14,801 nt of DNA from a virus: the UHGV virus genome UHGV-0275206. The stretch is one strand, 5' to 3'. The notes under the pieces were generated by a model. That model was not told the origin of the DNA and ran no database searches. It worked only from the letters and a program-made list of their open reading frames with translations. This document shows positions 3,014-14,731 of this stretch, in pieces; within the stretch, counting starts at the first letter, position 1; the number at the start of each line of letters is the position of its first letter. The position numbers were made by a program, and so were the translations under genes.

Positions 3014-4066
3014 TTATTTCCCCACCAGCTCGTTTATCTCTTTCACTGTCTGGTTAAACCGCTCTGACTCAAGCTCAACACCTAAGGCCCGACGCCCCAA
3101 CGCCATTGCTGCTTTTATTGTGGAACCGGATCCCATAAAAAAATCAGCAACCAGATCACCAGGTCGACTACTGGCATTGATTATTTGCCTGAGCATATCC
3201 GCCGGTTTCTCACACGGATGTTTACCCGGGTAGAACTGAACGGGTTTATGCATCCAGACATCGGTATAAGGCACGGAGACTGATACGGAGAAATAGCGCC
3301 GGAGAGATTTAAACTCATCCAGCAATTCAGAATATTTACGATTCAGTGAATCATAAGATGCCACCAGTTGGTGGTGTGGTTGTTCCAGTTGTTGTTCCTG
3401 AAACTTCTCTGCCGCTATACGGGAAAACAGTGCCTGTAACTTCCGATAGTCAGCCTCATTCGGCAACTGCCACTGACTGGCACCAAACCAGTGGGAAACC
3501 ATATTTTTCTTACCTGTGGCTTCGGCAATTTGTTTTGCCGTTATACCCAGTTCGGCACGAGCATCCCTGAAATACGATATCAGCGGTGCCATTATGTGCT
3601 GTTTGAGTTCCCTTTCTTTTGCCGCATAGCCGTCACTTTTGCCGCGATATGGCCCCTGGTAATGTTCAGCAAACAGAACGCGCTCTGTGGCAGGAAAATA
3701 TGCGCGCAGACTTTCTTTATTACACCCATTCCAACGTCCGGACGGCTTCGCCCAGATGATATGGTTAAGCACGTTGAAACGTTCACGCATCATGATCTCA
3801 ATATCAGATGCCAGGCGATGCCCACAGAACAGGTAAAGGCTTCCGGCAGGTTTCAACACCCGCCAGAACTGGGCCAGACAGTGGTCCAGCCACTTAAGGT
3901 AATCTTCGTCCCCTTTCCACTGATTGTCCCAGCCGTTGGGTTTCACCTTGAAGTAAGGCGGATCGGTAACAATCAGGTCAATGGAATCATCAGGCAGGGA
4001 CTGAATAAAATGCAGGCAATCAGCGTTGATTAAATCAACACTGTTTATTTTTACAGTATTTTTCAT
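3014..4066 (-). CDS. DNA methyltransferase, beta-class (motif IV DPPY before motif I FxGxG); likely N6-adenine-specific orphan MTase
   Basis: 350 aa; [10 protein letters not shown] near the N-terminus and DFFMGSGST near the C-terminus. No adjacent restriction endonuclease gene. No SD at the start. Confidence 0.85.
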
Positions 4067-4695: not shown

Positions 4696-5559
4696 TTGGA
4701 TAGTTCTACCACTTTCAAAGTCTTCTATGATGCCGAAGATGAAGAATTAGCACAGCATAAGATTGATGCAAAAACACTAAGTTTATCAATAGGGTCTATG
4801 GCTGACCTTATTGCAAAGGCGGATCGAAATCTTAATGATGGGCAGGAAACAGTCAAATTGATGGTTACCGCTCCTGCTGCACCTGGATCAATCGGTGTTA
4901 TTTATTCAATGCAAGAGTTAGTTCCTCATGCTGTCGATGTCGCCAAAGCAATTGGACTCACTGTTGCTGGTGGTGCATTAGCTGGTGGCTCAGCTCTTGC
5001 ATTGATTCGACAATTGGGGAGTAGAAAGGTTATTTCTGTTACTCGAAAGGTCGACACACAAGAAGCAGTATTAGAACTTGATGGAGAAGAAATTATTTGT
5101 CATGAGGCTGTTGCAAAGTTAGTGACTGATCCCGAAATACGACAAGCCTTAGTTAACGTAGTTAGAGCACCACTAGATGGTAAAGAGCGCCCGATCTTCA
5201 AAATTACTGATGATAATGGAGAAGAGATTCTCAAGCTTGAAGGAGAAGAAACTGAAGAAATCAAACCACTACCACGTGGTACTTTACTAGAAAAAGAAGT
5301 TTCTATTGATGAGGTTAACGTCAGATTCATTCAAGTAAACTTTGAAGGGAATAAGGGATGGCGAATTGATTATCTTGGTGAAGAACATTCAGTAAGCCTA
5401 GATGACAATGTTTTCCTTTCGCAGGTTCAGGCTGCAACAGTACAATTTTCAAAAGAGGACCTTTATGTTGTTGATTTAGAAACAACAAAAACATTTACTG
5501 CGCGTGGCGTAACAAACCGTTATGCTATCAAAAAAGTTAAACGTAGACGACCAGCTTAA
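4696..5559 (+). CDS. Cargo gene A: acidic 287-aa protein of unknown function with one Gly-zipper hydrophobic segment
   Basis: TTG start 5 nt after SD GAGG. GC about 37-40% by eye versus about 50-55% in flanking phage genes. Segment AKAIGLTVAGGALAGGSALALIRQLG carries GxxxG motifs; basic C-terminal tail KKVKRRRPA. No catalytic motif recognised. Confidence 0.6.
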   Translation: MDSSTTFKVFYDAEDEELAQHKIDAKTLSLSIGSMADLIAKADRNLNDGQETVKLMVTAPAAPGSIGVIYSMQELVPHAVDVAKAIGLTVAGGALAGGSALALIRQLGSRKVISVTRKVDTQEAVLELDGEEIICHEAVAKLVTDPEIRQALVNVVRAPLDGKERPIFKITDDNGEEILKLEGEETEEIKPLPRGTLLEKEVSIDEVNVRFIQVNFEGNKGWRIDYLGEEHSVSLDDNVFLSQVQAATVQFSKEDLYVVDLETTKTFTARGVTNRYAIKKVKRRRPA

Positions 5560-5565
5560 ACAGGA

Positions 5566-5829
5566 ATGATGTTAACCCAGCAGATCATAGAACTCGCGAT
5601 GTGGATAGGGGTGATCATGATATCACCTCTCCTGTTTCGCTTCTCATACGCTGCATCCGCTTTACTATGGCGGAGGTTATTCCCTGTTCGTAAGTTTGAG
5701 TTTGTTTTTGTCGATGAAGTCACCAACGATAAGCGGTCAATCACTATTGTCATGCCTAAAGACAAAAGCAAAACTATCGTTCAACTGATAGAAGAAGCAA
5801 CGAATGACGGCACCAGTTCAAATGTCTGA
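5566..5829 (+). CDS. Cargo gene B: small membrane protein (87 aa, N-terminal transmembrane segment)
   Basis: Starts 7 nt after the gene A stop (AGGA ATG ATG). Hydrophobic stretch LAMWIGVIMISPLLFRFSYAASALLW, then a charged soluble tail. Confidence 0.55.
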   Translation: MMLTQQIIELAMWIGVIMISPLLFRFSYAASALLWRRLFPVRKFEFVFVDEVTNDKRSITIVMPKDKSKTIVQLIEEATNDGTSSNV

Positions 5830-6235
5830 TGAAAAAAAACCAACTAGCCCAGTCACTTCAACCCTCTCTACTGGCGGTTTTGGGATCATTTTGTCAGGTC
5901 TGGTAACATTTTGCGTACCTGATGCCAATTCAAACCTTGCGAAATTACTATATTTAATAATACCTCTTATTTCGGCAATCCTGACATATATACTTTGCTG
6001 GGTAATTGCACGTCATGGACTTGAATCACCAGAAGATGCAGCAAAAAGAAAGCAATGCCTCCGAGATCTCGAGACCATTGATAAGCAATTAGCATCGAAA
6101 TATACCACTGATGAGTTTAGGCAAAAGCTGCTACGCTCTCGAGAAGCAACTGTGGAAATAATGATCAATATAGGAAAAAATAGTACAGCAAATCCATTAC
6201 CAAAATTTGAACAAATTGAGAAAGATACTGTGTAG
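5804..6235 (+). CDS. Cargo gene C: membrane protein (143 aa, or 137 aa from ATG 5822) with two predicted TM helices and a charged C-terminal helical region
   Basis: Overlaps gene B (coupled). TM candidates GGFGIILSGLVTFCV and LAKLLYLIIPLISAILTYILCWVIA; C-terminal KRKQCLRDLETIDKQLASKYTTDEFRQKLLRSREATVEIM. Ends 18 bp from the convergent Q stop. Confidence 0.55.
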   Translation: MTAPVQMSDEKKPTSPVTSTLSTGGFGIILSGLVTFCVPDANSNLAKLLYLIIPLISAILTYILCWVIARHGLESPEDAAKRKQCLRDLETIDKQLASKYTTDEFRQKLLRSREATVEIMINIGKNSTANPLPKFEQIEKDTV

Positions 6236-6253: not shown

Positions 6254-6616
6254 TTAATCCATATCTAATGTTAGATCTAGCATTGAAAGGCAGCCATCAA
6301 TAAACCCCTCAGCCATCTGTATCTCAATGCGTATTAATTTCTCATCCTTTTTACGAGCCTTGGCGAGCTTTCTTTTAGAGATACCGAATAGGTAATGGGC
6401 AACAAGAAGCGAATGTTCGTCCGGCCTTTTTTGCTTTAGACGAGCAAGACAACCTTCAAGAATTAATGCATCACTATCTGAACAAGCCTGACGTGTTTTG
6501 CTTGTATAGGGAAGAAGCCCTTTAAACCCAGCAGCTATAGGAGAATAGTCAACTCCTGAACTATCACTCGCCGCCCATGCTCCCCAACGATCCAGAACCA
6601 TTTGAATATCACGCAT
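6254..6616 (-). CDS. Q: Late-gene antitermination protein Q (short Phage_antitermQ type, as in DLP12 QuuD / phage 82)
   Basis: From ATG 6616: MRDIQMVLDRWGAWAASDSSGVDYSPIAAGFKGLL...EGCLARLKQ...; close in pattern to the roughly 125-aa QuuD-type Q as I recall it. SD GGAG upstream. The track start at 6631 is a TTG. Confidence 0.8.
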   Translation of the reverse strand: MRDIQMVLDRWGAWAASDSSGVDYSPIAAGFKGLLPYTSKTRQACSDSDALILEGCLARLKQKRPDEHSLLVAHYLFGISKRKLAKARKKDEKLIRIEIQMAEGFIDGCLSMLDLTLDMD

Positions 6617-6633
6617 CAACTTTCTCCACAAAA

Positions 6634-7629
6634 TCAGGCCAGTACGCCAATTGCCAGCACACGATCGATAAAACGAAATATCAGCTCCAGTTGGGAGCCA
6701 TACTTCTCTTCAAATGCCACGGTATCTGCATGCAGCTCGTCGTGATGCTTTCTGCACAAAGGCAACACAAAAAGGTCATGCGCTTTTGTTCCCATTCCAC
6801 CCTGACCGTGACCTATCAGGTGGTGGGGATCATCAGCGGGCTTTCCACAACATGCACACGGCTGTGTCTTAACCCAGCGCGTGTACTTTTCATTAACCCA
6901 GCGGCGACGTTTTGGGCGTAACATAAAAGACTCCGGCGACTCCGGATCCACTTTCAGCGCCAGCACCTTTTTCGCCTTATCCTGGATGATGCTGGTGGCA
7001 GGAACCGAAGGCACAAGGTCACTTTCCCGGGTAACAGACGGCACAACAGGCTTCGGTAATCTCAGTGCCTTACGGGCTGCACTTTCCGGTAAGGCATCCG
7101 CCAGATCATTACGAATCAGCCACCAGCACAGTTCCGGCATTGTCACAACGTGACTGTCATCAAAACCGAGATCCCGACGCACAACAGACAACACCCAGCG
7201 GGCACAGTTATCCGTTGCCATTGATTCCAGCCGTTCCGTGAACTGATCGCGCAGCTGGTTATCGCAGTGCCAGCACAGACGGATTGCACCCGGAGCGTGT
7301 CGCATTGTGGTCATGTTCTCGCTGTGCCAGTCGGAATGAGGCCACTGGCAGCCTTTTTCACGAAGTAACCAGCTTTCAAGACATTCCACGCCACCAGCAC
7401 GACGGATCACTGCCTCATTGCGGAACACGGCCCGAACGGCAGGATCATCCGCCAGCGGTTGTGATGCCGCCGGAACGGCACCACTGGCGAAAGATGAATA
7501 ACGCTCCGGCTCAGGCTCCAGCAGGACACGCCCCTGCATAAACAGGGGCATCAGCTCTGAACCTGGCCTGAACAATACGATCCCCATACGCGGGGCTATT
7601 TCAGGGGTCAGTAGTGCTCTCACGGTCAC
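6634..7629 (-). CDS. DUF968 (YdfU-like) protein with C-terminal HNH-like Cys/His cluster
   Basis: 331 aa; C-terminal ...QPCACCGKPADDPHHLIGHGQGG...LPLCRKHHDELH; sits directly upstream of Q as ydfU does next to quuQ in Qin-type prophages. GTG start (alternative GTG at 7623 with SD GAGG). Confidence 0.75.
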   Translation of the reverse strand: MTVRALLTPEIAPRMGIVLFRPGSELMPLFMQGRVLLEPEPERYSSFASGAVPAASQPLADDPAVRAVFRNEAVIRRAGGVECLESWLLREKGCQWPHSDWHSENMTTMRHAPGAIRLCWHCDNQLRDQFTERLESMATDNCARWVLSVVRRDLGFDDSHVVTMPELCWWLIRNDLADALPESAARKALRLPKPVVPSVTRESDLVPSVPATSIIQDKAKKVLALKVDPESPESFMLRPKRRRWVNEKYTRWVKTQPCACCGKPADDPHHLIGHGQGGMGTKAHDLFVLPLCRKHHDELHADTVAFEEKYGSQLELIFRFIDRVLAIGVLA

Positions 7630-7630
7630 C

Positions 7631-8440
7631 TCAATGAACGGTATCGAGCAGCTTTAACAGCTCAGGGAATCGGGATTCGAAGAAATGCGGCTGCGTCTCA
7701 CGCGGATTTGCCGGACTGGTGATGTTCTTGCCGAACATGCAGCCTTTCGCCGTCAGCGACCAGAATTTTTTGATGTTGTTAATCGCGGTACGGCTGTATC
7801 GTTCGCGCTGCTCGACGATCCCCAGCTTCGCCATCTGGTGATATGCCTGATTAGCTGTCAGGCGGATACCATACTGCTTCAGCAGTGCACTCAGTGACAG
7901 CGTGGGGCGGCTTGAGCCATCAGGCGCGTCAGCAGGAGCATCAATGGCATAGCGCGGTGCCAGATTCGGTAAGCCAACAGCCTCCTGGAGTTTCTGACAG
8001 GCACCAAGCACTGAAGAGTTAGACAGGTTTAACTCCCTGCGCATAAAGTCCAGCAGAATCACTCCAGCCTGCATCTTGTCAGCAGCCTGCCCGGATAATT
8101 TTTCCGGTGCGCTGGTTACCATATCGAAAGTACGGATCACCTTCAGATGGAATGACGGGCTGATCCACATTGCATAGGCATACACCAGTTCTTTGCAGAC
8201 ATACGTCCCCTGGTTATTTCCGCCATTAATGACGCTAACTGGTTGATTTTGTTCCAGAGGCGGAATTCCACCCTCGGTGAAAAGTTGTTCAATCAATTCA
8301 CAGGTTTGCTTATTGGAGAGCCAGTATTTCGGGCGGTTTTTTTGTTCTCCCCCGGCTGCCCTGTGCAGATCGTTCAGGCTGTAACGCCCATAAGCATCAC
8401 GACGAACTTCAATACCATCAATGACCATCAGATTATTCAT
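7631..8440 (-). CDS. KilA-N domain protein (269 aa)
   Basis: From ATG 8440 (SD GAGGAGAAA): MNNLMVIDGIEVRRDAYGRYSLNDLHRAAGGEQKNRPKYWLSNKQTCELIE...YVCKELVYAYAMWISPSFHLKVIRTFD, a typical KilA-N N-terminal domain, plus a C-terminal domain of unknown function. Confidence 0.8.
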   Translation of the reverse strand: MNNLMVIDGIEVRRDAYGRYSLNDLHRAAGGEQKNRPKYWLSNKQTCELIEQLFTEGGIPPLEQNQPVSVINGGNNQGTYVCKELVYAYAMWISPSFHLKVIRTFDMVTSAPEKLSGQAADKMQAGVILLDFMRRELNLSNSSVLGACQKLQEAVGLPNLAPRYAIDAPADAPDGSSRPTLSLSALLKQYGIRLTANQAYHQMAKLGIVEQRERYSRTAINNIKKFWSLTAKGCMFGKNITSPANPRETQPHFFESRFPELLKLLDTVH

Positions 8441-8459
8441 ACTTCGTTTCTCCTCTTGA

Positions 8460-8849
8460 TCAGGCGGCTGCACCCGCCGTTTTCTCGTACTTACTGATAG
8501 TGATCTCGACCTTCCCTTCCGGGATAACCGGTCCCCACTCCACCAGCATTCTTTTCACCTGGCTGTCGTCTTCCCACACACCCGCGTGGGTCAGGGCGTC
8601 AAACAGCGCCTTGTTATAGTTGTCCAGATCGCGGATCCGGTTATCCGGAGGAAACAACACGATCTCCACTGAAGCAGGTGCCGACGTTGGTTTCGGCAGA
8701 CGACGTAACTGCTCAACTATTGCTGTGCACGCCGCACTTTGGAATTTTCGCCCCGCCGCGCTTATCAGGCTCTTACCAGCAAATGCCCCTTTGTTGGGGT
8801 GTCGCCAGTAGGTGTTCACGCTGGGTGGAAAAGGCAGAATCAGCTTCAT
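8460..8849 (-). CDS. rusA: RusA-family Holliday junction resolvase
   Basis: 129 aa; MKLILPFPPSVNTYWRH...RIRDLDNYNKALFDALTHAGVWEDDSQV, matching the RusA signature (PPSxN, DxDN, catalytic Asp cluster). Confidence 0.85.
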   Translation of the reverse strand: MKLILPFPPSVNTYWRHPNKGAFAGKSLISAAGRKFQSAACTAIVEQLRRLPKPTSAPASVEIVLFPPDNRIRDLDNYNKALFDALTHAGVWEDDSQVKRMLVEWGPVIPEGKVEITISKYEKTAGAAA

Positions 8850-9172
8850 ACTTTCAGCCCCCTCTCATGTAACCAGTGGGCTGCACGCAGCCTTGCGTTT
8901 TCCTCACCGGCAAGCAGTGAGCGGATAATCCCGACCGCCTCGCTGTCGTCGTCCTTCACCGCGGTATGAAGCGTGATCCCCCGGGCCACACCACGCTTTA
9001 TCGTGATGACGCCTTTTTTCTCCAGTGCGCGAAGATGCTCCACCGCTGCATTCACCGAACGGTATCCCAGCATGGTTGCCACCTCCTGATTGGTTGGCGG
9101 GAAGCCGCGTTCTTTCTGATAAGAAATCAGCATATCCAGCACCTGCTGCTGGCATTGAGTTAACGTCGTCAT
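8846..9172 (-). CDS. LexA-type winged-helix DNA-binding domain protein (no peptidase domain)
   Basis: 108 aa; TQCQQQVLDMLISYQKERGFPPTNQEVATMLGYRSVNAAVEHLRALEKKGVI resembles the LexA N-terminal DNA-binding domain. ATGA-coupled to the upstream and downstream genes. Confidence 0.7.
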   Translation of the reverse strand: MTTLTQCQQQVLDMLISYQKERGFPPTNQEVATMLGYRSVNAAVEHLRALEKKGVITIKRGVARGITLHTAVKDDDSEAVGIIRSLLAGEENARLRAAHWLHERGLKV

Positions 9173-9821
9173 GCCGCCATCTCCCTGACCAGTTTTTCTG
9201 CCTGCTGGCGAATCTGCGCCAGAAAGGCCTCACCACATGCCTCAAGTTCATCGCGCCCGATGTAGCTGATTGCCGGTCCCTTCCAGGTCTTGTCGAAAAC
9301 AGCAATAGCACCAGCGAAGAAAGCGCCTGTCGGCACCTGCTTCTCATCCTTCGGGATAAACCAGGCAGGCAGTTCAAAACCAATACGCCCGCGAATAAAA
9401 GCAATATGATCTACATCTTCCGGCCACCACACTTCGCTGGTGGCAGCTTTGATCAGGAAAACATAGCGCCCGCCTTTATCACGCATGGCACTGGCATGCT
9501 TCATGATGTAACGCATGCCGGTGATGTATTGCCCCCATGCTGACTGGCGCGGCTGTATGGGGGATTACCAAAGGCAGCACCTTTAAGCTCCGCAAGGCGT
9601 TCTGACCAGTCATGCGCCAGCGCGTTGTCTTCCGCCGTGTAATACGCAGCACATTTGGCGTTATCACCGTCAGTGAACAGATCCAGAACAAACGGGCCAA
9701 ACAGGGTGTTAATTCCCCAGAAAATGTTGTCCGGCGTGCGCCACTGATCGCCCACTTCCTTCAGTTCATGGGCTGGTTTGTTCCGCAGTTCCACCAGCGC
9801 CTGGCAATATTTATTACTCAT
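9169..9821 (-). pseudogene. Phage Dam-type DNA N6-adenine methyltransferase (PF05869-like) split by a -1 frameshift in a C5/G5 homopolymer
   Basis: N-terminal ORF (9501..9821) carries ...AFGNPPYSRASQHGG and stops. C-terminal ORF (9169..9516) carries ...AFIRGRIGFELP...PTGAFFAGAIAVFD. Both halves together resemble a single Dam-family protein. Adding one C to the run at 9532..9536 fuses them as ...SQHGGQYITGMRYIMKH... Confidence 0.75.
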
Positions 9822-10309
9822 TAAGCCCCCACGTAATTCCCTGAGAGATACCACTCTTCACCTGATGCAGCCCGCTTACTGCTTTTCCGTAAACACCGTT
9901 CACGACGCGCCAAAAAATTGTTTCGTTCTGGCAGGGAGTGGCTTTCACGGAATGCCGCCATCCACACCGTTGCAGCACGACGGTATAAGCCCCTGGACTC
10001 CAGTTCTTCCGCCTGGCGGGTCAGGCACAAAATCACCCGCGGGTCGTTAGTGCCGACATAGAAATTGCGCACAGGTCTGGTTTCACGAACTGGTTGTGGT
10101 TCCGGATCCTGCGCTCTCTCAGTCAGGCGCGGGAAATGTCTGTGTGTATCTCCTTCACAACGGTGAGCCACACGCCCACTCTGACGTAACTTGCTTGCTG
10201 ACTGCAGAACGCGCTGCCGTGAGTAACCTGCAAAAGCATCCGCAATGTCTCCGGAAGTACAGCCCGGATGGGCTTCAATGAATTTCTGAACGTCATTCAA
10301 AAGACTCAT
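9821..10309 (-). CDS. PerC-family transcriptional activator-like protein with an extra N-terminal domain
   Basis: C-terminal AEELESRGLYRRAATVWMAAFRESHSLPERNNFLARRERCLRKS resembles PerC-family regulators; the N-terminal roughly 60 aa (MSLLNDVQKFIEAHPGCTSGDIADAFAGYSRQRVLQSASKLRQSG) looks like a separate winged-helix-like module. Start ATG 10309 lies just after the rep stop. Confidence 0.6.
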   Translation of the reverse strand: MSLLNDVQKFIEAHPGCTSGDIADAFAGYSRQRVLQSASKLRQSGRVAHRCEGDTHRHFPRLTERAQDPEPQPVRETRPVRNFYVGTNDPRVILCLTRQAEELESRGLYRRAATVWMAAFRESHSLPERNNFLARRERCLRKSSKRAASGEEWYLSGNYVGA

Positions 10310-10311
10310 GC

Positions 10312-11253
10312 TCACCCCCTGAATCCTGCCGGGATCTGGCTGTAGTCCACATTGTCGTAACTGGCTTTGAAGTACGGGTCTTCGCGTTTTTCTGTGTACG
10401 TGCTGACGGACGGCGATAAGCGCAGGGAAAGCTCATCCCATTTTTCCCGCAGCTTCGACGGGCTGAGCACGTTACGGCACCAGAACGGATCGCGGCTGAC
10501 GCGGCTGTACATCTCGCAGATTTGTTTGTGAGTACGACCATCCTGCACACACATCAGGCGAATTTCGTTTGCCCAGGCTGTCCAGTTCGGTTCTTTGGGA
10601 CGAACCACCTCGCCGTCACATTCGGCAGCCTGCTCGTACAGGGCGATGATTTTTTTCCAGAGCCACTGTGCGCAGGTCAAATCATCCTGCGTCCCCCACT
10701 GGCGCTTTTTAGGGCTGAATACAACCGCATCAGGATGGCGAGTTAAAAAATCCTGTTCATCCGTCTGCGTGTCCGGTTGCGAAGCGTCCGGACGAGAAGG
10801 TTTTTTATCTGACGGATCATGTTTTGATTTTACTGACGGATCCCCGCCAGATTCTGACGGGTGAAAACCCGCTTTTTTGCCAGATTTCGACGCATCAAAT
10901 TTTGACGGGTCAGATTTTGATGCGTCAGATTTTGACGGGTCAGAATCTGACAGTTGAGAAAATGCCGCTGCCTGAAGCTTCGCAACGTTAAGCTGATAAA
11001 CATTCGACGCATTGCGGTTACCCTGGCGACGCGCCTTACGCGTTAACCAGCCTTCTGCTTCCAGCCGTGCGATAGCCGTTCTGACGGTACTCATCCCCGC
11101 GCCAATCTGACGGGCAATGGTTTCAATTGATGGCCAGCACACACCTTCGTCATTACTGAAATCAGCCAGGCGGGCCATAATTGCCACGCTGGATAACTTC
11201 ATGCCTGATGCAGCGCAACCATCCCATACATAGCCGGTTAATTTAGTGCTCAT
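10312..11253 (-). CDS. Phage replication initiation protein (O-like; N-terminal HTH domain) containing the origin iterons
   Basis: 313 aa; N-terminal MSTKLTGYVWDGCAASGMKLSSVAIMARLADFSNDEGVCWPSIETIARQIGAGMSTVRTAIARLEAEGWL, a pattern I associate with HTH replisome organizers. The central repetitive linker SDPSKSDASKSDPSKFDASKS is encoded by 15-bp tandem repeats. Confidence 0.75.
   Translation of the reverse strand: MSTKLTGYVWDGCAASGMKLSSVAIMARLADFSNDEGVCWPSIETIARQIGAGMSTVRTAIARLEAEGWLTRKARRQGNRNASNVYQLNVAKLQAAAFSQLSDSDPSKSDASKSDPSKFDASKSGKKAGFHPSESGGDPSVKSKHDPSDKKPSRPDASQPDTQTDEQDFLTRHPDAVVFSPKKRQWGTQDDLTCAQWLWKKIIALYEQAAECDGEVVRPKEPNWTAWANEIRLMCVQDGRTHKQICEMYSRVSRDPFWCRNVLSPSKLREKWDELSLRLSPSVSTYTEKREDPYFKASYDNVDYSQIPAGFRG
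10806..10955. repeat. Iteron-like 15-bp direct repeats (probable ori) inside the replication initiator gene
   Basis: Contiguous units at 10881..10955: cagatttcgacgcat, caaattttgacgggt, cagattttgatgcgt, cagattttgacgggt, cagaatctgacagtt; further copies at 10848..10862 (cagattctgacgggt), 10827..10841 and 10806..10820, all with a TGACGG-type core. Analogous to lambda ori within O. Confidence 0.7.
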
Positions 11254-11601
11254 GACCGACCTCTATTTCCCTGAATTTACGACGAAACTGTTCGAGCGGG
11301 CTGAAGCACTCATGCTCATAGCCTTCGCGGAGGTAGATAACCCGTTGTGTTTCCGGTTCCCAACGAATGACTCTGACGGGCACTCCGTAGTGATCTTTGA
11401 ACCAGCGGTTAACTTGTCGCAAAGGACTGTCTCCTTCTGCCGGTTGAAATCACCCACAGCCCACTCTGCAAAGCTGTGGGTTACAATTTCCCTGTCACCT
11501 GGTACATTTACTGCATAGCAATACTCCACCTTCGCTTTTCCACCCGGTACAGGAAGCGCAATCAGTTGCGAGCGACGGTAGTGTGTTGTTAAACTGTTCA
11601 T
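11243..11601 (-). pseudogene. Early-operon hypothetical gene disrupted by an apparent -1 frameshift
   Basis: The frame from ATG 11601 ([52 protein letters not shown]...) degenerates into low-complexity sequence and stops at 11263. An alternative frame opens near 11435 and reads ...[63 protein letters not shown], ending at a stop that overlaps the rep ATG (ATGAGCACTAA), the expected coupled arrangement. A 1-nt insertion near 11422..11431 would fuse the frames. Confidence 0.55.
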
Positions 11602-12155
11602 GCGTTAGTTTCTCCACAACCAGAAGCAATCGACGCCACGACGCCCGGAGCTGCACACTCGCGGGCGTCATTACTTTCTGAAATGCAAAAAATTTTGTAG
11701 ACAAGTGCTGCATGCTCCTGCAGCTTCGAAATTGAGAGATACAGCTCGTCGTTAATTGCTGTCTTCTCATGCGGTTCCACTACACCGTCTTCGATTGCTG
11801 AACGAATCTGTTTTGAATAACTGCCGATCTGTTCAATGACTTCCAGCAGACGCTGGTTAATATCGGCGTTGTCCACATCCTCGACGTCAGGAAGAGACAC
11901 AAAGACGCCATTTGCAGACTGCGCCACAGCGTCAGCAATGAAGTGAGTTCCACCAGCACGTTGCAAAATCATTGCCCATCCCAGCGGGAAAATCTGATCG
12001 CCATCGGCACGAAGGCGGTTAAATAATGCGTTCTCTGTTACATCCAGCCAGTCAGCTGCTTCAGCGTAACCCCCCGGCAACGCTGCGATAGTTTTTCTGA
12101 CAGCTTTCACGTACCACTCAGGCTGTTTTTCTACTTTCCAGTGATGCTTACCCAC
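11598..12155 (-). CDS. Early regulatory protein in the cII position (possibly Phage_CP76 / CII-like family)
   Basis: 185 aa from a GTG start preceded by a strong SD (AGGAGGT, 5-nt spacing) overlapping the cro-like gene end. Family assignment is from position and vague recollection only. Confidence 0.45.
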
Positions 12156-12408
12156 GGTTCACCTCCTGTTCCTGTGGTTTAAACCCATTCTGGTTTTGGC
12201 TAGATTGAAAACGTGCCGGATAAAGAATCTGCATTTCGCTGACTTCACCCTTAAAAAAATTGGCTAAACGTTCTGCAAGCTCGATAGATGGAATCTGCTC
12301 CAGCCTCTCAATACGACTCAACGTCGCTGGATTGACTTGAACACCCGCAGCAACATGCTGCAAAGTGAAACCATGCGCCTTACGCACATTTCGTAATGGT
12401 GATTGCAT
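12148..12408 (-). CDS. cro: Cro-like HTH (XRE-type) early regulator, divergent from the repressor gene
   Basis: 86 aa; HTH segment FTLQHVAAGVQVNPATLSRIERLEQIPSIELAERLANFF; SD GGAGGG upstream; first gene of the minus-strand early operon. Confidence 0.75.
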   Translation of the reverse strand: MQSPLRNVRKAHGFTLQHVAAGVQVNPATLSRIERLEQIPSIELAERLANFFKGEVSEMQILYPARFQSSQNQNGFKPQEQEVNRG

Positions 12409-12505
12409 ATGCCCTCCAAATATTGCGCGTTATGCATGTTATTTCACGCAATTATTTTGCGCAAGTTGATTTGCTTATCACGCAATAAAGAAATGTAATA
12501 AACGC
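12409..12505. promoter_or_regulatory. oR-like operator/promoter region between the cro-like gene and the repressor gene
   Basis: 97-bp intergenic region with dyad sites of form TTGC-N7-GCAA: ttgcttatcacgcaa (12471..12485, perfect) and ttgcgcgttatgcat (12423..12437, imperfect), plus palindromes cgcaattattttgcg (12447..12461) and TTGCGCAA. The repressor ORF starts without an SD, as with leaderless lambda cI from PRM. Confidence 0.6.
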
Positions 12506-13198
12506 ATGAACATAGGAAACCGAGTCAGACAACTTCGCCAAGCGAAGAACATGAAAATCGCCGATCTCGCTGAAGCAATAGGAGTAGATGCGGCGAACAT
12601 CTCGCGCTTAGAAACGGGTAAGCAAAAACAATTTACCGAACAAACACTGAGTAATATTGCCAAGAGCTTAGGTGTTGATATTGCTGATCTCTTTACCTCT
12701 GCCCACAAAAGTAATACTGTATATAAAAACAGTAATAATGAGGATGTTGCGCAGGTGAAGGATGTGTTCCGTATTGAAATGCTGGATATCAGTGCCAGTG
12801 CGGGAAATGGCCTTATCCAGGGCGGTGATGTCATTGATGTGATTCATGCCATCGAATACAGAACTGATAATGCTGTATCAATGTTCGGCGGACGACCAGC
12901 CAATCACATCAAAGTTATCAACGTTCGTGGGGACAGTATGTGTCCAACCATTGAGCCAGGAGATCTCATCTTCGTTGATGTCAGCATCAATCAGTTTGAT
13001 GGTGATGGTATATATGTCTTTGGTTTTGATGACAAAATATACGTTAAAAGACTTCAAATGATTCCTGACAAACTGCTGGTGATTTCTGATAACCAGATTT
13101 ACCGTGAATGGGGAATTACTAGCGAAAACGAACACCGATTCATGGTCTTTGGAAAGGTCTTAATCAGTCAGTCGCAAACCCTTAAGAGACATAATTAA
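12506..13198 (+). CDS. cI: CI-type prophage repressor: N-terminal XRE HTH plus C-terminal S24 (LexA-like) autopeptidase domain
   Basis: 230 aa; IADLAEAIGVDAANISRLETGKQ HTH; C-terminal GDSMCPTIEPGDLIFVD...YVKRL with Ser/Lys dyad; candidate Ala-Gly cleavage site in DISASAGNG. Confidence 0.88.
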   Translation: MNIGNRVRQLRQAKNMKIADLAEAIGVDAANISRLETGKQKQFTEQTLSNIAKSLGVDIADLFTSAHKSNTVYKNSNNEDVAQVKDVFRIEMLDISASAGNGLIQGGDVIDVIHAIEYRTDNAVSMFGGRPANHIKVINVRGDSMCPTIEPGDLIFVDVSINQFDGDGIYVFGFDDKIYVKRLQMIPDKLLVISDNQIYREWGITSENEHRFMVFGKVLISQSQTLKRHN

Positions 13199-13217
13199 CC
13201 TCAATATCCCATCCATC

Positions 13218-13240
13218 GGCCACCGAAAGGTGGCTTTTTA
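13218..13240 (+). terminator. Rho-independent terminator after the repressor gene
   Basis: GCCACC-GAAA-GGTGGC (13219..13234) followed by TTTTT (13235..13239). Confidence 0.8.
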
Positions 13241-13252
13241 CTACCTATAAAT

Positions 13253-13289
13253 TTGCATACCTCGCAAATATCACTTGCATATCTCGCAA
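13253..13289. promoter_or_regulatory. oL-like pair of repressor operators
   Basis: Two perfect TTGC-N7-GCAA dyads, ttgcatacctcgcaa (13253..13267) and ttgcatatctcgcaa (13275..13289), 22 bp centre to centre; same architecture as the site in the cI/cro intergenic region. Confidence 0.55.
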
Positions 13290-13452
13290 TTTAATTTTAT
13301 CTTTTGTTCCAGACCAACTACAGGATTACAACAAAATCTGGTTGCAACACGGTGCATGTGTCGTAAGCAGTCAGTAAATGTCAAAAACGAACAGGCAGGA
13401 CGCCCACGAAGTAGCCGCCTGGGGCATATGAAGTCCAGGATGATTCGTTAGC

Positions 13453-13478
13453 AACAAAAAAGCGCCCTACAGGACGCT
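13453..13478 (-). terminator. Rho-independent terminator downstream of the zinc-ribbon gene (minus strand)
   Basis: Minus strand GCGTCC-TGTA-GGGCGC (one G-U pair) followed by TTTTTTGTT. Confidence 0.6.
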
Positions 13479-13517
13479 TAGCTCTTTAGCAATCTGGATA
13501 TCCACAACAGTAGTAAT

Positions 13518-14009
13518 CTACAGATTGCCGTTAAGTTTTCTGGACAACTCCTCAATGGATGGAGGCGATACGTAATCCGGATTTTTATTCATCAGAAACT
13601 TATTTTCACAGTGGAGGCACCTGCTTTTATGAAAAAGCTCATCTTCGCTAACCGGGAATGGTTGAAGTATCGATACTATCTTTTGTCCAAAACATTTTGG
13701 GCAAAGATGCATGGTTATGCTGCCACCGTTCACGATTACCTCCTTCGAGTATACAAAAGTACCCGACTCAAGTTGGTTAAGGATATAGCCTTCCGTCTGA
13801 GCCTCAAAGTTTTCGAATTCTGCAATTTTAGCTTTGAGAGAAGCATTTATTTCTTGATAAGAGCCCACCAGTTCAACGAGAGACACGCATTCGCGCTGAA
13901 TAGACGCAAGCTTTGAGTTCAGCTCACCAATAGCCGCATTTACTTCAGCTTGAGTTTTTGCCTCGTTCATTAGTTTTGCAATCTGGGCTGTTTCACGAAT
14001 AGCCGTCAT
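13518..14009 (-). CDS. Hypothetical coiled-coil protein with C-terminal CxxC...CxxC zinc-ribbon (about 163 aa from ATG 14009)
   Basis: From ATG 14009: MTAIRETAQIAKLMNEAKTQAEVNAAIGELNSKLASIQRECVSLVELVGSYQEINASLKAKIAEFENFEAQTEGYIL...MHLCPKCFGQKIV...SRCLHCENKF. The ORF-track N-terminal extension (MWCRVPPGAWRRLH...) looks non-coding. Own terminator; orientation convergent on cI. Confidence 0.6.
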   Translation of the reverse strand: MTAIRETAQIAKLMNEAKTQAEVNAAIGELNSKLASIQRECVSLVELVGSYQEINASLKAKIAEFENFEAQTEGYILNQLESGTFVYSKEVIVNGGSITMHLCPKCFGQKIVSILQPFPVSEDELFHKSRCLHCENKFLMNKNPDYVSPPSIEELSRKLNGNL

Positions 14010-14047
14010 TGCTGCCGTTAATTCAGCGATCACATTGAATACTCTTA

Positions 14048-14093
14048 TTGTTGTTGGGGATATCCAGATTAACCGAATCCTTGTTGTTGGGGA
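14048..14093. repeat. Two perfect 13-bp direct repeats ttgttgttgggga, 33 bp apart, upstream of the zinc-ribbon gene
   Basis: Copies at 14048..14060 and 14081..14093, each (TTG)3GGGA; located 40-85 bp upstream of the ATG at 14009 on the minus strand. Confidence 0.6.
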
Positions 14094-14295
14094 ATAACCA
14101 GGTCCACCTCGCCTGATGTGGCTAAAAGCAGGCACATAACAGCTAAGTATTTTCAACCAGAGAGAATCCTTAGCGTTGTGGTGAATGCGGCTCAGCGCAC
14201 GCGGGTTAAGGTTGAGGCTGACAGTCGACCTTCTGTGGATACCCACCCGCCTGGTGTGCAACCTTCGCCAGGCACCGGGAGGCACCCGGCACCAC

Positions 14296-14366
14296 AACTT
14301 TATGCTGTGTGTAGTCCTGGCGGTACCAGTTTGTACCCTTGCTTCCGGCTGGTACCGTCCTTTTTT
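14296..14366 (+). ncRNA. DicF-like small RNA candidate ending in a strong intrinsic terminator
   Basis: CCUGGCGGUACCAGUUUGUACCC resembles the DicF core (UUUGGCGGUAUCAGUUUUACUCC) as I recall it. Hairpin GGCGGTACCAG (14319..14329) with CTGGTACCGTC (14349..14359), then TTTTTT (14361..14366). No ORF with an SD in the region; lies in the pL-side operon, as dicF does in Qin. Confidence 0.45.
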
Positions 14367-14367
14367 G

Positions 14368-14454
14368 CAAAACAGAGAAGAGCATCACCGGACGACGGGC
14401 TCATAACCCAATCCATCCGGGCGGCTGCCACCGCAGGTGTTCTTCTCTGTTTTG
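14368..14454. repeat. Long-range perfect 14-bp inverted repeat enclosing 59 nt (extended RNA stem-loop candidate)
   Basis: caaaacagagaaga (14368..14381) and its reverse complement tcttctctgttttg (14441..14454), between the DicF-like terminator and the next gene start. Confidence 0.6.
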
Positions 14455-14503
14455 TGGAGAAACCAACCGACCTTGCAGGGTCGATATGATGAGGAGCAGC
14501 AAA

Positions 14504-14731
14504 ATGGCTAGCGAACGCAGTACTGATGTGCAGGCATTTATCGGGGAGCTGGACGGCGGCGTATTTGAAACCAAAATCGGCGCAGTTCTCAGTGAGGTCG
14601 CTTCCGGTGTGATGAACACGAAAACCAAAGGGAAGGTCTCACTCAATCTGGAAATCGAACCGTTTGATGAGAACCGTGTGAAAATCAAACACAAACTCTC
14701 ATTGAACCGCCCCGGAAATCCTGGAGACTAA
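14504..14731 (+). CDS. Small early (pL-side) gene truncated by IS insertion; native part about 66 codons, last 9 codons come from the IS end
   Basis: ATG 14504 preceded by SD GAGGAG (7-nt spacing). MASERSTDVQAFIGELDGGVFETKIGAVLSEVASGVMNTKTKGKVSLNLEIEPFDENRVKIKHKLS, then ...LNRPGNPGD* encoded by the IS terminal repeat from 14703. Confidence 0.5.
   Translation: MASERSTDVQAFIGELDGGVFETKIGAVLSEVASGVMNTKTKGKVSLNLEIEPFDENRVKIKHKLSLNRPGNPGD

Follow-up and report, generated by a model that had tools for sequence, protein, structure and literature searches.

The DNA analysed here (the window) is a stretch of 14,801 nt from UHGV virus genome UHGV-0275206. Judged by identity to annotated relatives and by Pfam matches, it is the section of an E. 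coli lambdoid prophage of the SfV/SfII/CPS-53 type that deals with regulation, replication and lysis. The early-right operon runs on the minus strand in the order cro-like gene, YmfL, DUF4222, HTH_36, PerC/YfdN, dam, LexA DNA-binding domain (LexA-DBD), RusA, KilA-N, DUF968 and Q. Successive early genes are linked by junctions at which stop and start overlap (Table 1), with a further ATGA junction at 8849-8846. In the window's feature order, the gene of a second methyltransferase lies just upstream of the holin gene and is followed by holin, lysozyme and Rz. The 108-aa LexA-DBD protein encoded downstream of dam lacks a peptidase S24 domain in Pfam searches.

Table 1. Features of the window, with strand and basis of assignment
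Feature	Position	Strand	Basis
cI-like repressor	12506..13198	+	annotated relatives/Pfam
HTH_36 protein, occupying a replication-gene position	10312..11253	-	annotated relatives/Pfam
Smallest block identical in the window and all 10 carriers fetched	8991..10626		mismatch maps
PerC-family YfdN homologue, upstream neighbour of dam	9821..10315	-	identical and annotated in strains VTB97432v and Bongo; PF06069
TAATG junction; PerC/YfdN stop shares one base with dam start	9819..9823	-	sequence; PGAP coordinates in VTB97432v
dam (broken)	9169..9821	-	PF05869/TIGR01712
N-terminal ORF of the broken yfdM-type phage dam gene	9501..9821	-	translation; PF05869; YfdM identity
Deletion scar, C5 on the plus strand, G5 in the gene	9532..9536	-	alignment to YD786, 689R6 and SfV; allele counts
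C-terminal ORF of the same dam gene, other frame	9169..9516	-	translation; PF05869; separate gene calls in public assemblies
ATGA overlap; premature TGA 9503-9501 over ATG 9504-9502 of the C-terminal frame	9501..9504	-	sequence; start calls of the 111-aa ORF
ATGA junction; normal dam stop overlaps LexA-DBD start	9169..9172	-	sequence; PF01726
108-aa LexA-DBD protein, downstream neighbour of dam	8846..9172	-	PF01726
Q	6254..6631	-	annotated relatives/Pfam
Variable island between Q and the late methyltransferase	4696..6235	+	relatives differ in this slot
Second methyltransferase, N6_N4 type, 350 aa, intact	3014..4066	-	PF01555 N6_N4_Mtase, E 2e-42

The variable island contains a 287-aa ORF (4696..5559, plus strand) that matches PDC-S42, a candidate defence family in PADLOC (E 1e-32), as well as phrog_3243, with no Pfam match, followed by two small ORFs (5566..5829 and 5804..6235, plus strand) without matches. 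The same slot holds a KAP-family NTPase in VTB97432v, and lipocalin, 2-thiouracil desulfurase and AraC genes in another relative (L008). Elsewhere in the window, the sequence at 14178..14489 (plus strand) is identical to a segment that PGAP labels 'frameshifted hypothetical protein' at the equivalent 5382..5693 of the VTB97432v and Bongo loci, and it contains a T6 run.

A phage dam gene split between two frames

The original prediction placed the NPPY-containing half and the RGR/FFAGA-containing half of a Dam-type methyltransferase in different frames, and translation of the minus strand bears this out. The N-terminal ORF starts at ATG 9821, stops at 9503-9501 and encodes 106 aa ending in ...AAFGNPPYSRASQHGGNTSPACVTS. 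Its residues 1-95 are those of the intact protein, residue 96 is G in place of E, and GNTSPACVTS then leads to the TGA; the ORF is closed by the out-of-frame tail NTSPACVTS, which comes after ...GNPPYSRASQHGG. The C-terminal ORF begins MRYIMKHASAMRDKGGRYVFLIKAATSEVWWPEDVDHIAFIRGRIGFELPAWFIPKDEKQVPTGAFFAGAIAVF..., with a start at ATG 9516 (115 aa) or ATG 9504 (111 aa), and ends at 9171-9169. The IRGRIGF, AFFAGAIAVF and MRYIMKHAS blocks all lie in this ORF, while motif IV (NPPY, invariant in a six-member alignment) occupies residues 86-89 of the N-terminal ORF.

The two ORFs adjoin on a single Pfam profile, PF05869 (DNA N-6-adenine-methyltransferase, Dam). The N-terminal ORF covers profile positions 3-73 (E 4e-25, 88.8 bits) and the C-terminal ORF positions 73-167 (E 1.7e-16, 60.8 bits), so the split gene is real and not a chance resemblance. 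Once joined and repaired, the 217-aa protein matches PF05869 with E 1e-45 and 155.8 bits (cut-off 28.1), and matches TIGR01712, the NCBIfam equivalog model for 'phage N-6-adenine-methyltransferase', with E 7e-77 and 256.5 bits (cut-off 97.05). Since the frame changes after residue 95 and the window has no uninterrupted ORF over the whole domain, it carries a pseudogene of the PF05869/TIGR01712 family and not an intact member. A sequence search against solved structures returned no relative; the best match was to a xylose isomerase, which is unrelated (E 0.69).

The closest named relatives are the methyltransferase genes of SfV (where it is called 'dam'), SfII, mEp460 and Stx2 prophages, which share 96.7-99.6% nucleotide identity with the window over the gene and its junctions. 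They have the same neighbours (PerC/YfdN upstream, LexA-DBD downstream) and the same early-right position. All are single 654-nt ORFs that encode 217 aa and read QHEGQY, whereas the window's 653-nt gene lacks the A of GAG and is split. A 720-nt match to SfII was considered as another indel allele and rejected; SfII carries dam as an unbroken 654-nt ORF, and the difference in length stems from sequence upstream of it.

The gene also has a counterpart in E. coli K-12. YfdM (b2356, 91 aa; 8113..8388 in the K-12 locus L015), from cryptic prophage CPS-53, matches the window's protein over residues 1-89, through NPPY, with 100% identity, and thus the window's gene is a full-length relative of yfdM. 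The K-12 gene has the same upstream yfdN and is likewise a truncated copy of dam. However, its C-terminal half is absent through a larger prophage deletion, whereas the window keeps the whole C-terminal half in the other frame.

The lesion is a lost A

We aligned the window with intact alleles from E. coli YD786, phage vB_EcoM-689R6 and phage SfV. The window reads CATGGGGGCAA where the intact alleles read CATGAGGGGCAA. The intact reading is CAG CAT GAG GGG CAA TAC (Q H E G Q Y), that is, CATG-A-GGGGCAA; in the alignment of the window and VTB97432v with the three intact alleles, the window appears as CAGCATG-GGGGCAATAC. The missing base is thus an A in the gene (a T on the plus strand) between 9536 and 9535, in codon 96 (GAG), seven codons past NPPY. 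Loss of this A joins G and GGGG, so the five-base run is a product of the deletion, and the ancestral tract on the plus strand is C4-T-C.

This changes how the frameshift is to be read. The C5 run to which the original prediction pointed is present on the plus strand, but a change in homopolymer length as the cause of the frameshift is contradicted by the intact alleles, which have an A inside the tract. One extra C would restore the frame on paper, giving QHGGQY, yet this does not match the ancestral state and the resulting sequence was found in none of the collections searched. The intact protein has 217 aa and not the roughly 225 aa expected of a repaired ORF. This extra base, a sixth G in the gene, was rejected as the ancestral state, with no match in the E. 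coli records, IMG/VR or the protein collection.

Allele counts were taken from several collections. Megablast found the dam gene in 2,124 of 5,426 complete E. coli genomes. Matches of 721 nt, the window's length, came only from VTB97432v and Bongo, and every other match among those listed spans 722 nt. An 82-mer carrying the deletion is exact in 2 of the 1,724 matching complete E. coli records and the wild-type 82-mer in 587; a spread sample of the remaining records all span 82 nt, the intact length, except the weakest, a partial match. The six-G 82-mer has no exact match in the same 1,724 records. Among IMG/VR contigs, the wild-type pattern occurs in at least 120 and the deletion pattern in one; the six-G and four-G forms occur in none. 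The exact 217-aa product of a six-G revertant is absent from about 15 billion proteins. No deletion allele was found among 185,579 species-representative genomes, a count of little weight since E. coli is one representative there.

The dam gene is, by the pattern of its substitutions and reading frames, normally maintained. It is intact in 106 of the 110 IMG/VR copies that have the wild-type site, and codon differences among these copies show a synonymous excess (886 synonymous vs 288 non-synonymous). The other four copies (L042, L083, L090 and L044) are broken, three by frameshifts that each have a position of their own and one by a nonsense codon. Four unrelated disruptions among 110 copies indicate that it is commonplace for this accessory gene to decay sporadically in prophages, and the window's allele appears as one case that spread. 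K-12 YfdM ends two residues past NPPY and the window's frame changes seven residues past it, two independent truncations close to each other. Since the other four disruptions are located elsewhere, these two imply no hotspot.

Carriers of the allele and its spread

On 82 contigs from NCBI, ENA and Logan (163 index blocks), the 106-aa frameshift product recurs exactly, down to its wrong tail. The C-terminal ORF product is found on 79 contigs in its 111-aa form and on 19 contigs in its 115-aa form, Shigella sonnei among them. Public assemblies call the C-terminal ORF as a separate gene, as in the carrier L007 (8318-8653, vs 8001-8321 for the N-terminal ORF). We fetched ten carrier loci: two RefSeq complete genomes, the complete GenBank chromosome CP055967, four draft assemblies, one TPA assembly, one ENA metagenome contig and one IMG/VR prophage. 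The 653-nt gene is identical to the window's in all ten. The two RefSeq carriers are strains VTB97432v (L001) and Bongo (L002), one a chicken isolate from South Africa and the other from an Eastern Bongo in the USA, and in both PGAP labels the gene 'phage N-6-adenine-methyltransferase, frameshifted'. Public genomes thus already carry the allele annotated as a frameshifted pseudogene.

Beyond the gene, the carriers differ. Positions 8004-14702 of the window are base-for-base identical to the VTB97432v locus and to another carrier (L006) and differ at one position from the Bongo locus; mismatches to these carriers are concentrated in window positions 6258-8003. One carrier (L010) diverges upstream of about 10626 and has a different immunity region with another repressor/cro pair. 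Another (L012) diverges downstream of about 8991 and has a different integrase, antiterminator, lysis cassette and terminase. Over the full window, none of the ten loci matches without differences. The intact twin of the deletion haplotype is the YD786 allele, 99.9% identical with one gap. The pattern is that expected of a single deletion on a single haplotype, represented by the shared block 8991..10626; recombination later moved the allele into several prophage mosaics and accounts for the differences between carriers to either side of the block. Since all carrier copies are identical, they are uninformative on selection acting on the two halves.

Interpretation of the split gene

Together, our results suggest that the window carries an ordinary loss-of-function dam pseudogene of a lambdoid prophage, a reading that we regard as highly probable. 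The 1-nt deletion behind it has a single origin and was spread by recombination. A decaying prophage gene was among the explanations first offered for the frameshift, and it is the one that the identical alleles labelled by PGAP in two complete genomes uphold. Normally, dam encodes a 217-aa enzyme that belongs to the small phage Dam family and is an orphan N6-adenine DNA methyltransferase. Loss of the A from codon 96, just past NPPY, shifts the frame, adds 10 wrong residues and leads to the stop at 9503-9501, and it leaves the second half of the single catalytic domain detached from the first. Because the two halves of one small catalytic domain are separated, the gene is most likely a pseudogene whose methyltransferase activity is lost. 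The loss is tolerated and is presumably neutral. The phage enzyme is accessory; should its target be GATC, it would duplicate host Dam in E. coli, and its loss would be harmless in a Dam-positive host. Recombination has since taken the allele into several prophage mosaics.

A GATC target for the window's dam subfamily is suggested by phage VT2-Sakai, whose orphan methyltransferase M.EcoVT2Dam is stated to target GATC (PMC6602927). This enzyme is probably the product of VT2-Sakai orf32 (175 aa; PF05869, E 6e-65), the only PF05869 gene in the part of the record examined. The orf32 protein shares the NPPYS and GRI.F motifs with the window's protein. However, its gene belongs to the nin region of another lambdoid phage, and the protein is 31% identical to the window's protein and lacks a stretch of about 15 residues, including the TGM block, where the window's frameshift falls. 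With this identity and this missing stretch, the specificity of the VT2 Dam is not simply transferable to the window's gene.

The frameshift may also reach beyond dam. In the frameshift allele, translation of the N-terminal ORF stops about 330 nt before the ATGA junction of dam and LexA-DBD. Since the start of LexA-DBD is coupled to the dam stop through this junction, the frameshift upstream may influence translation of LexA-DBD. A promoter scan of 8800-10400 found no promoter-like site and nothing that points to an internal promoter serving the C-terminal half, and a terminator scan of the same region gave one terminator-like site, below the shuffle mean. The ATGA at 9504-9501 is a possible termination-reinitiation site, and reinitiation there could yield the 111-aa C-terminal fragment and limit polarity on the downstream genes.

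This ATGA overlap, which has the same arrangement that joins neighbouring genes of the operon, raises the question of whether the broken gene still works in two pieces. Ribosomes could restart at the overlap, and the 106-aa and 111-aa fragments could together form an active methyltransferase; alternatively, the N-terminal fragment could have an activity of its own like that of YfdM. The break sits between NPPYS and the next conserved block (TGM..IM.KA), within a linker that varies in length, is poorly conserved and is absent from VT2 Dam. Prophages that look complete have kept the allele, as have several mosaics, and retained function in either form would, if true, explain this persistence. 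The carriers are identical, however, so their persistence may just reflect a young allele. Moreover, the cut parts halves of one small catalytic domain, about 11 residues are lost or replaced, including the conserved TGM block, and no Shine-Dalgarno-like sequence precedes either ATG (9516 or 9504). The split is also seen in one haplotype only, set against the single ORFs of most IMG/VR copies and the four copies broken elsewhere. A naturally two-subunit methyltransferase was considered and rejected, as only this one identical haplotype is split and diverged relatives do not have two adjacent ORFs. For the fragment alone, deletion or overproduction of the 91-aa K-12 YfdM has been reported to change the propagation of the T1-like phage SW1 (preprint 10.1101/413146), and in view of this phenotype the 106-aa fragment may not be inert and could have a function of its own. 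We consider a two-piece enzyme or an active fragment unlikely. Still less credible, and close to negligible in our assessment, is a full-length protein made by programmed ribosomal frameshifting or transcriptional slippage at the G run of the junction. The site, T GGG GGC, is not a canonical X XXY YYZ heptamer, and five G's are too short for efficient transcriptional slippage. Neither a two-frame architecture nor a slippery site is conserved across homologues, which are single ORFs in 587 phage records and in the 106 intact IMG/VR copies, with the split confined to one haplotype.

Two further readings turn on the G5 run itself. The original prediction raised a slippage-prone tract that switches the methyltransferase on and off, in which the C5/G5 run would gain and lose bases by slipped-strand mispairing. 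A five-base homopolymer does lie exactly at the frame change, and one base more would restore the full-length frame, much as the phasevarion mod genes of Haemophilus, Neisseria and Helicobacter are methyltransferase ORFs broken at a short run of identical bases. In phasevarions, however, the length of the repeat tract varies from strain to strain and inside one strain, with ON lengths and OFF lengths both observed, whereas the window's dam has an ON allele without the homopolymer and no length variants were found. The natural ON allele has an interrupted tract, G-A-GGGG, and is not a length variant of the window's run; the only alternative states seen are A present and A absent. When tract length was compared in related prophages, as had been proposed, no polymorphism appeared: G6 is absent from the E. 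coli records, IMG/VR and the proteins searched, G4 is absent from IMG/VR, and the carriers show zero length differences between them. A 5-base run is also shorter than the tracts known to switch at contingency loci. Phase variation thus fails its defining tests for want of tract-length polymorphism, and we hold it to be very improbable. Much the same can be said of a sequencing or assembly error, in which the source genome would be intact and one base dropped in base calling. Single-base indels beside G/C runs are a common type of error, and only 2 of the 1,724 complete-genome records share the allele. Against this, the same allele, with the gene 100% identical, recurs in at least 10 further loci that were fetched and that come from a range of submitters and pipelines, the same truncated product is encoded on the 82 contigs, the lost base is an A between G's and not a change in homopolymer length, and 587 complete genomes have the identical local sequence assembled in its intact form. 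These findings rule out a one-off error of assembly. A systematic error is very unlikely, because the same context is intact in hundreds of genomes and the lost base lies outside a homopolymer, and we give the error reading as a whole hardly any credence.

For the loss-of-function pseudogene that we favor, the significance is small beyond correct annotation. The locus illustrates that a homopolymer seen at a frameshift may have been created by the mutation instead of causing it, and that the intact allele must be checked before phase variation is called. The allele is also a convenient single-origin marker for recombination among SfV/CPS-53-like prophages. The intact N6_N4 methyltransferase of the late region would be the prophage's remaining candidate for non-host methylation. 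With its reading frame broken, the phage Dam of the early operon most likely contributes nothing to adenine methylation in the strain, and the strain's methylome should be read against host Dam and this second prophage methyltransferase.
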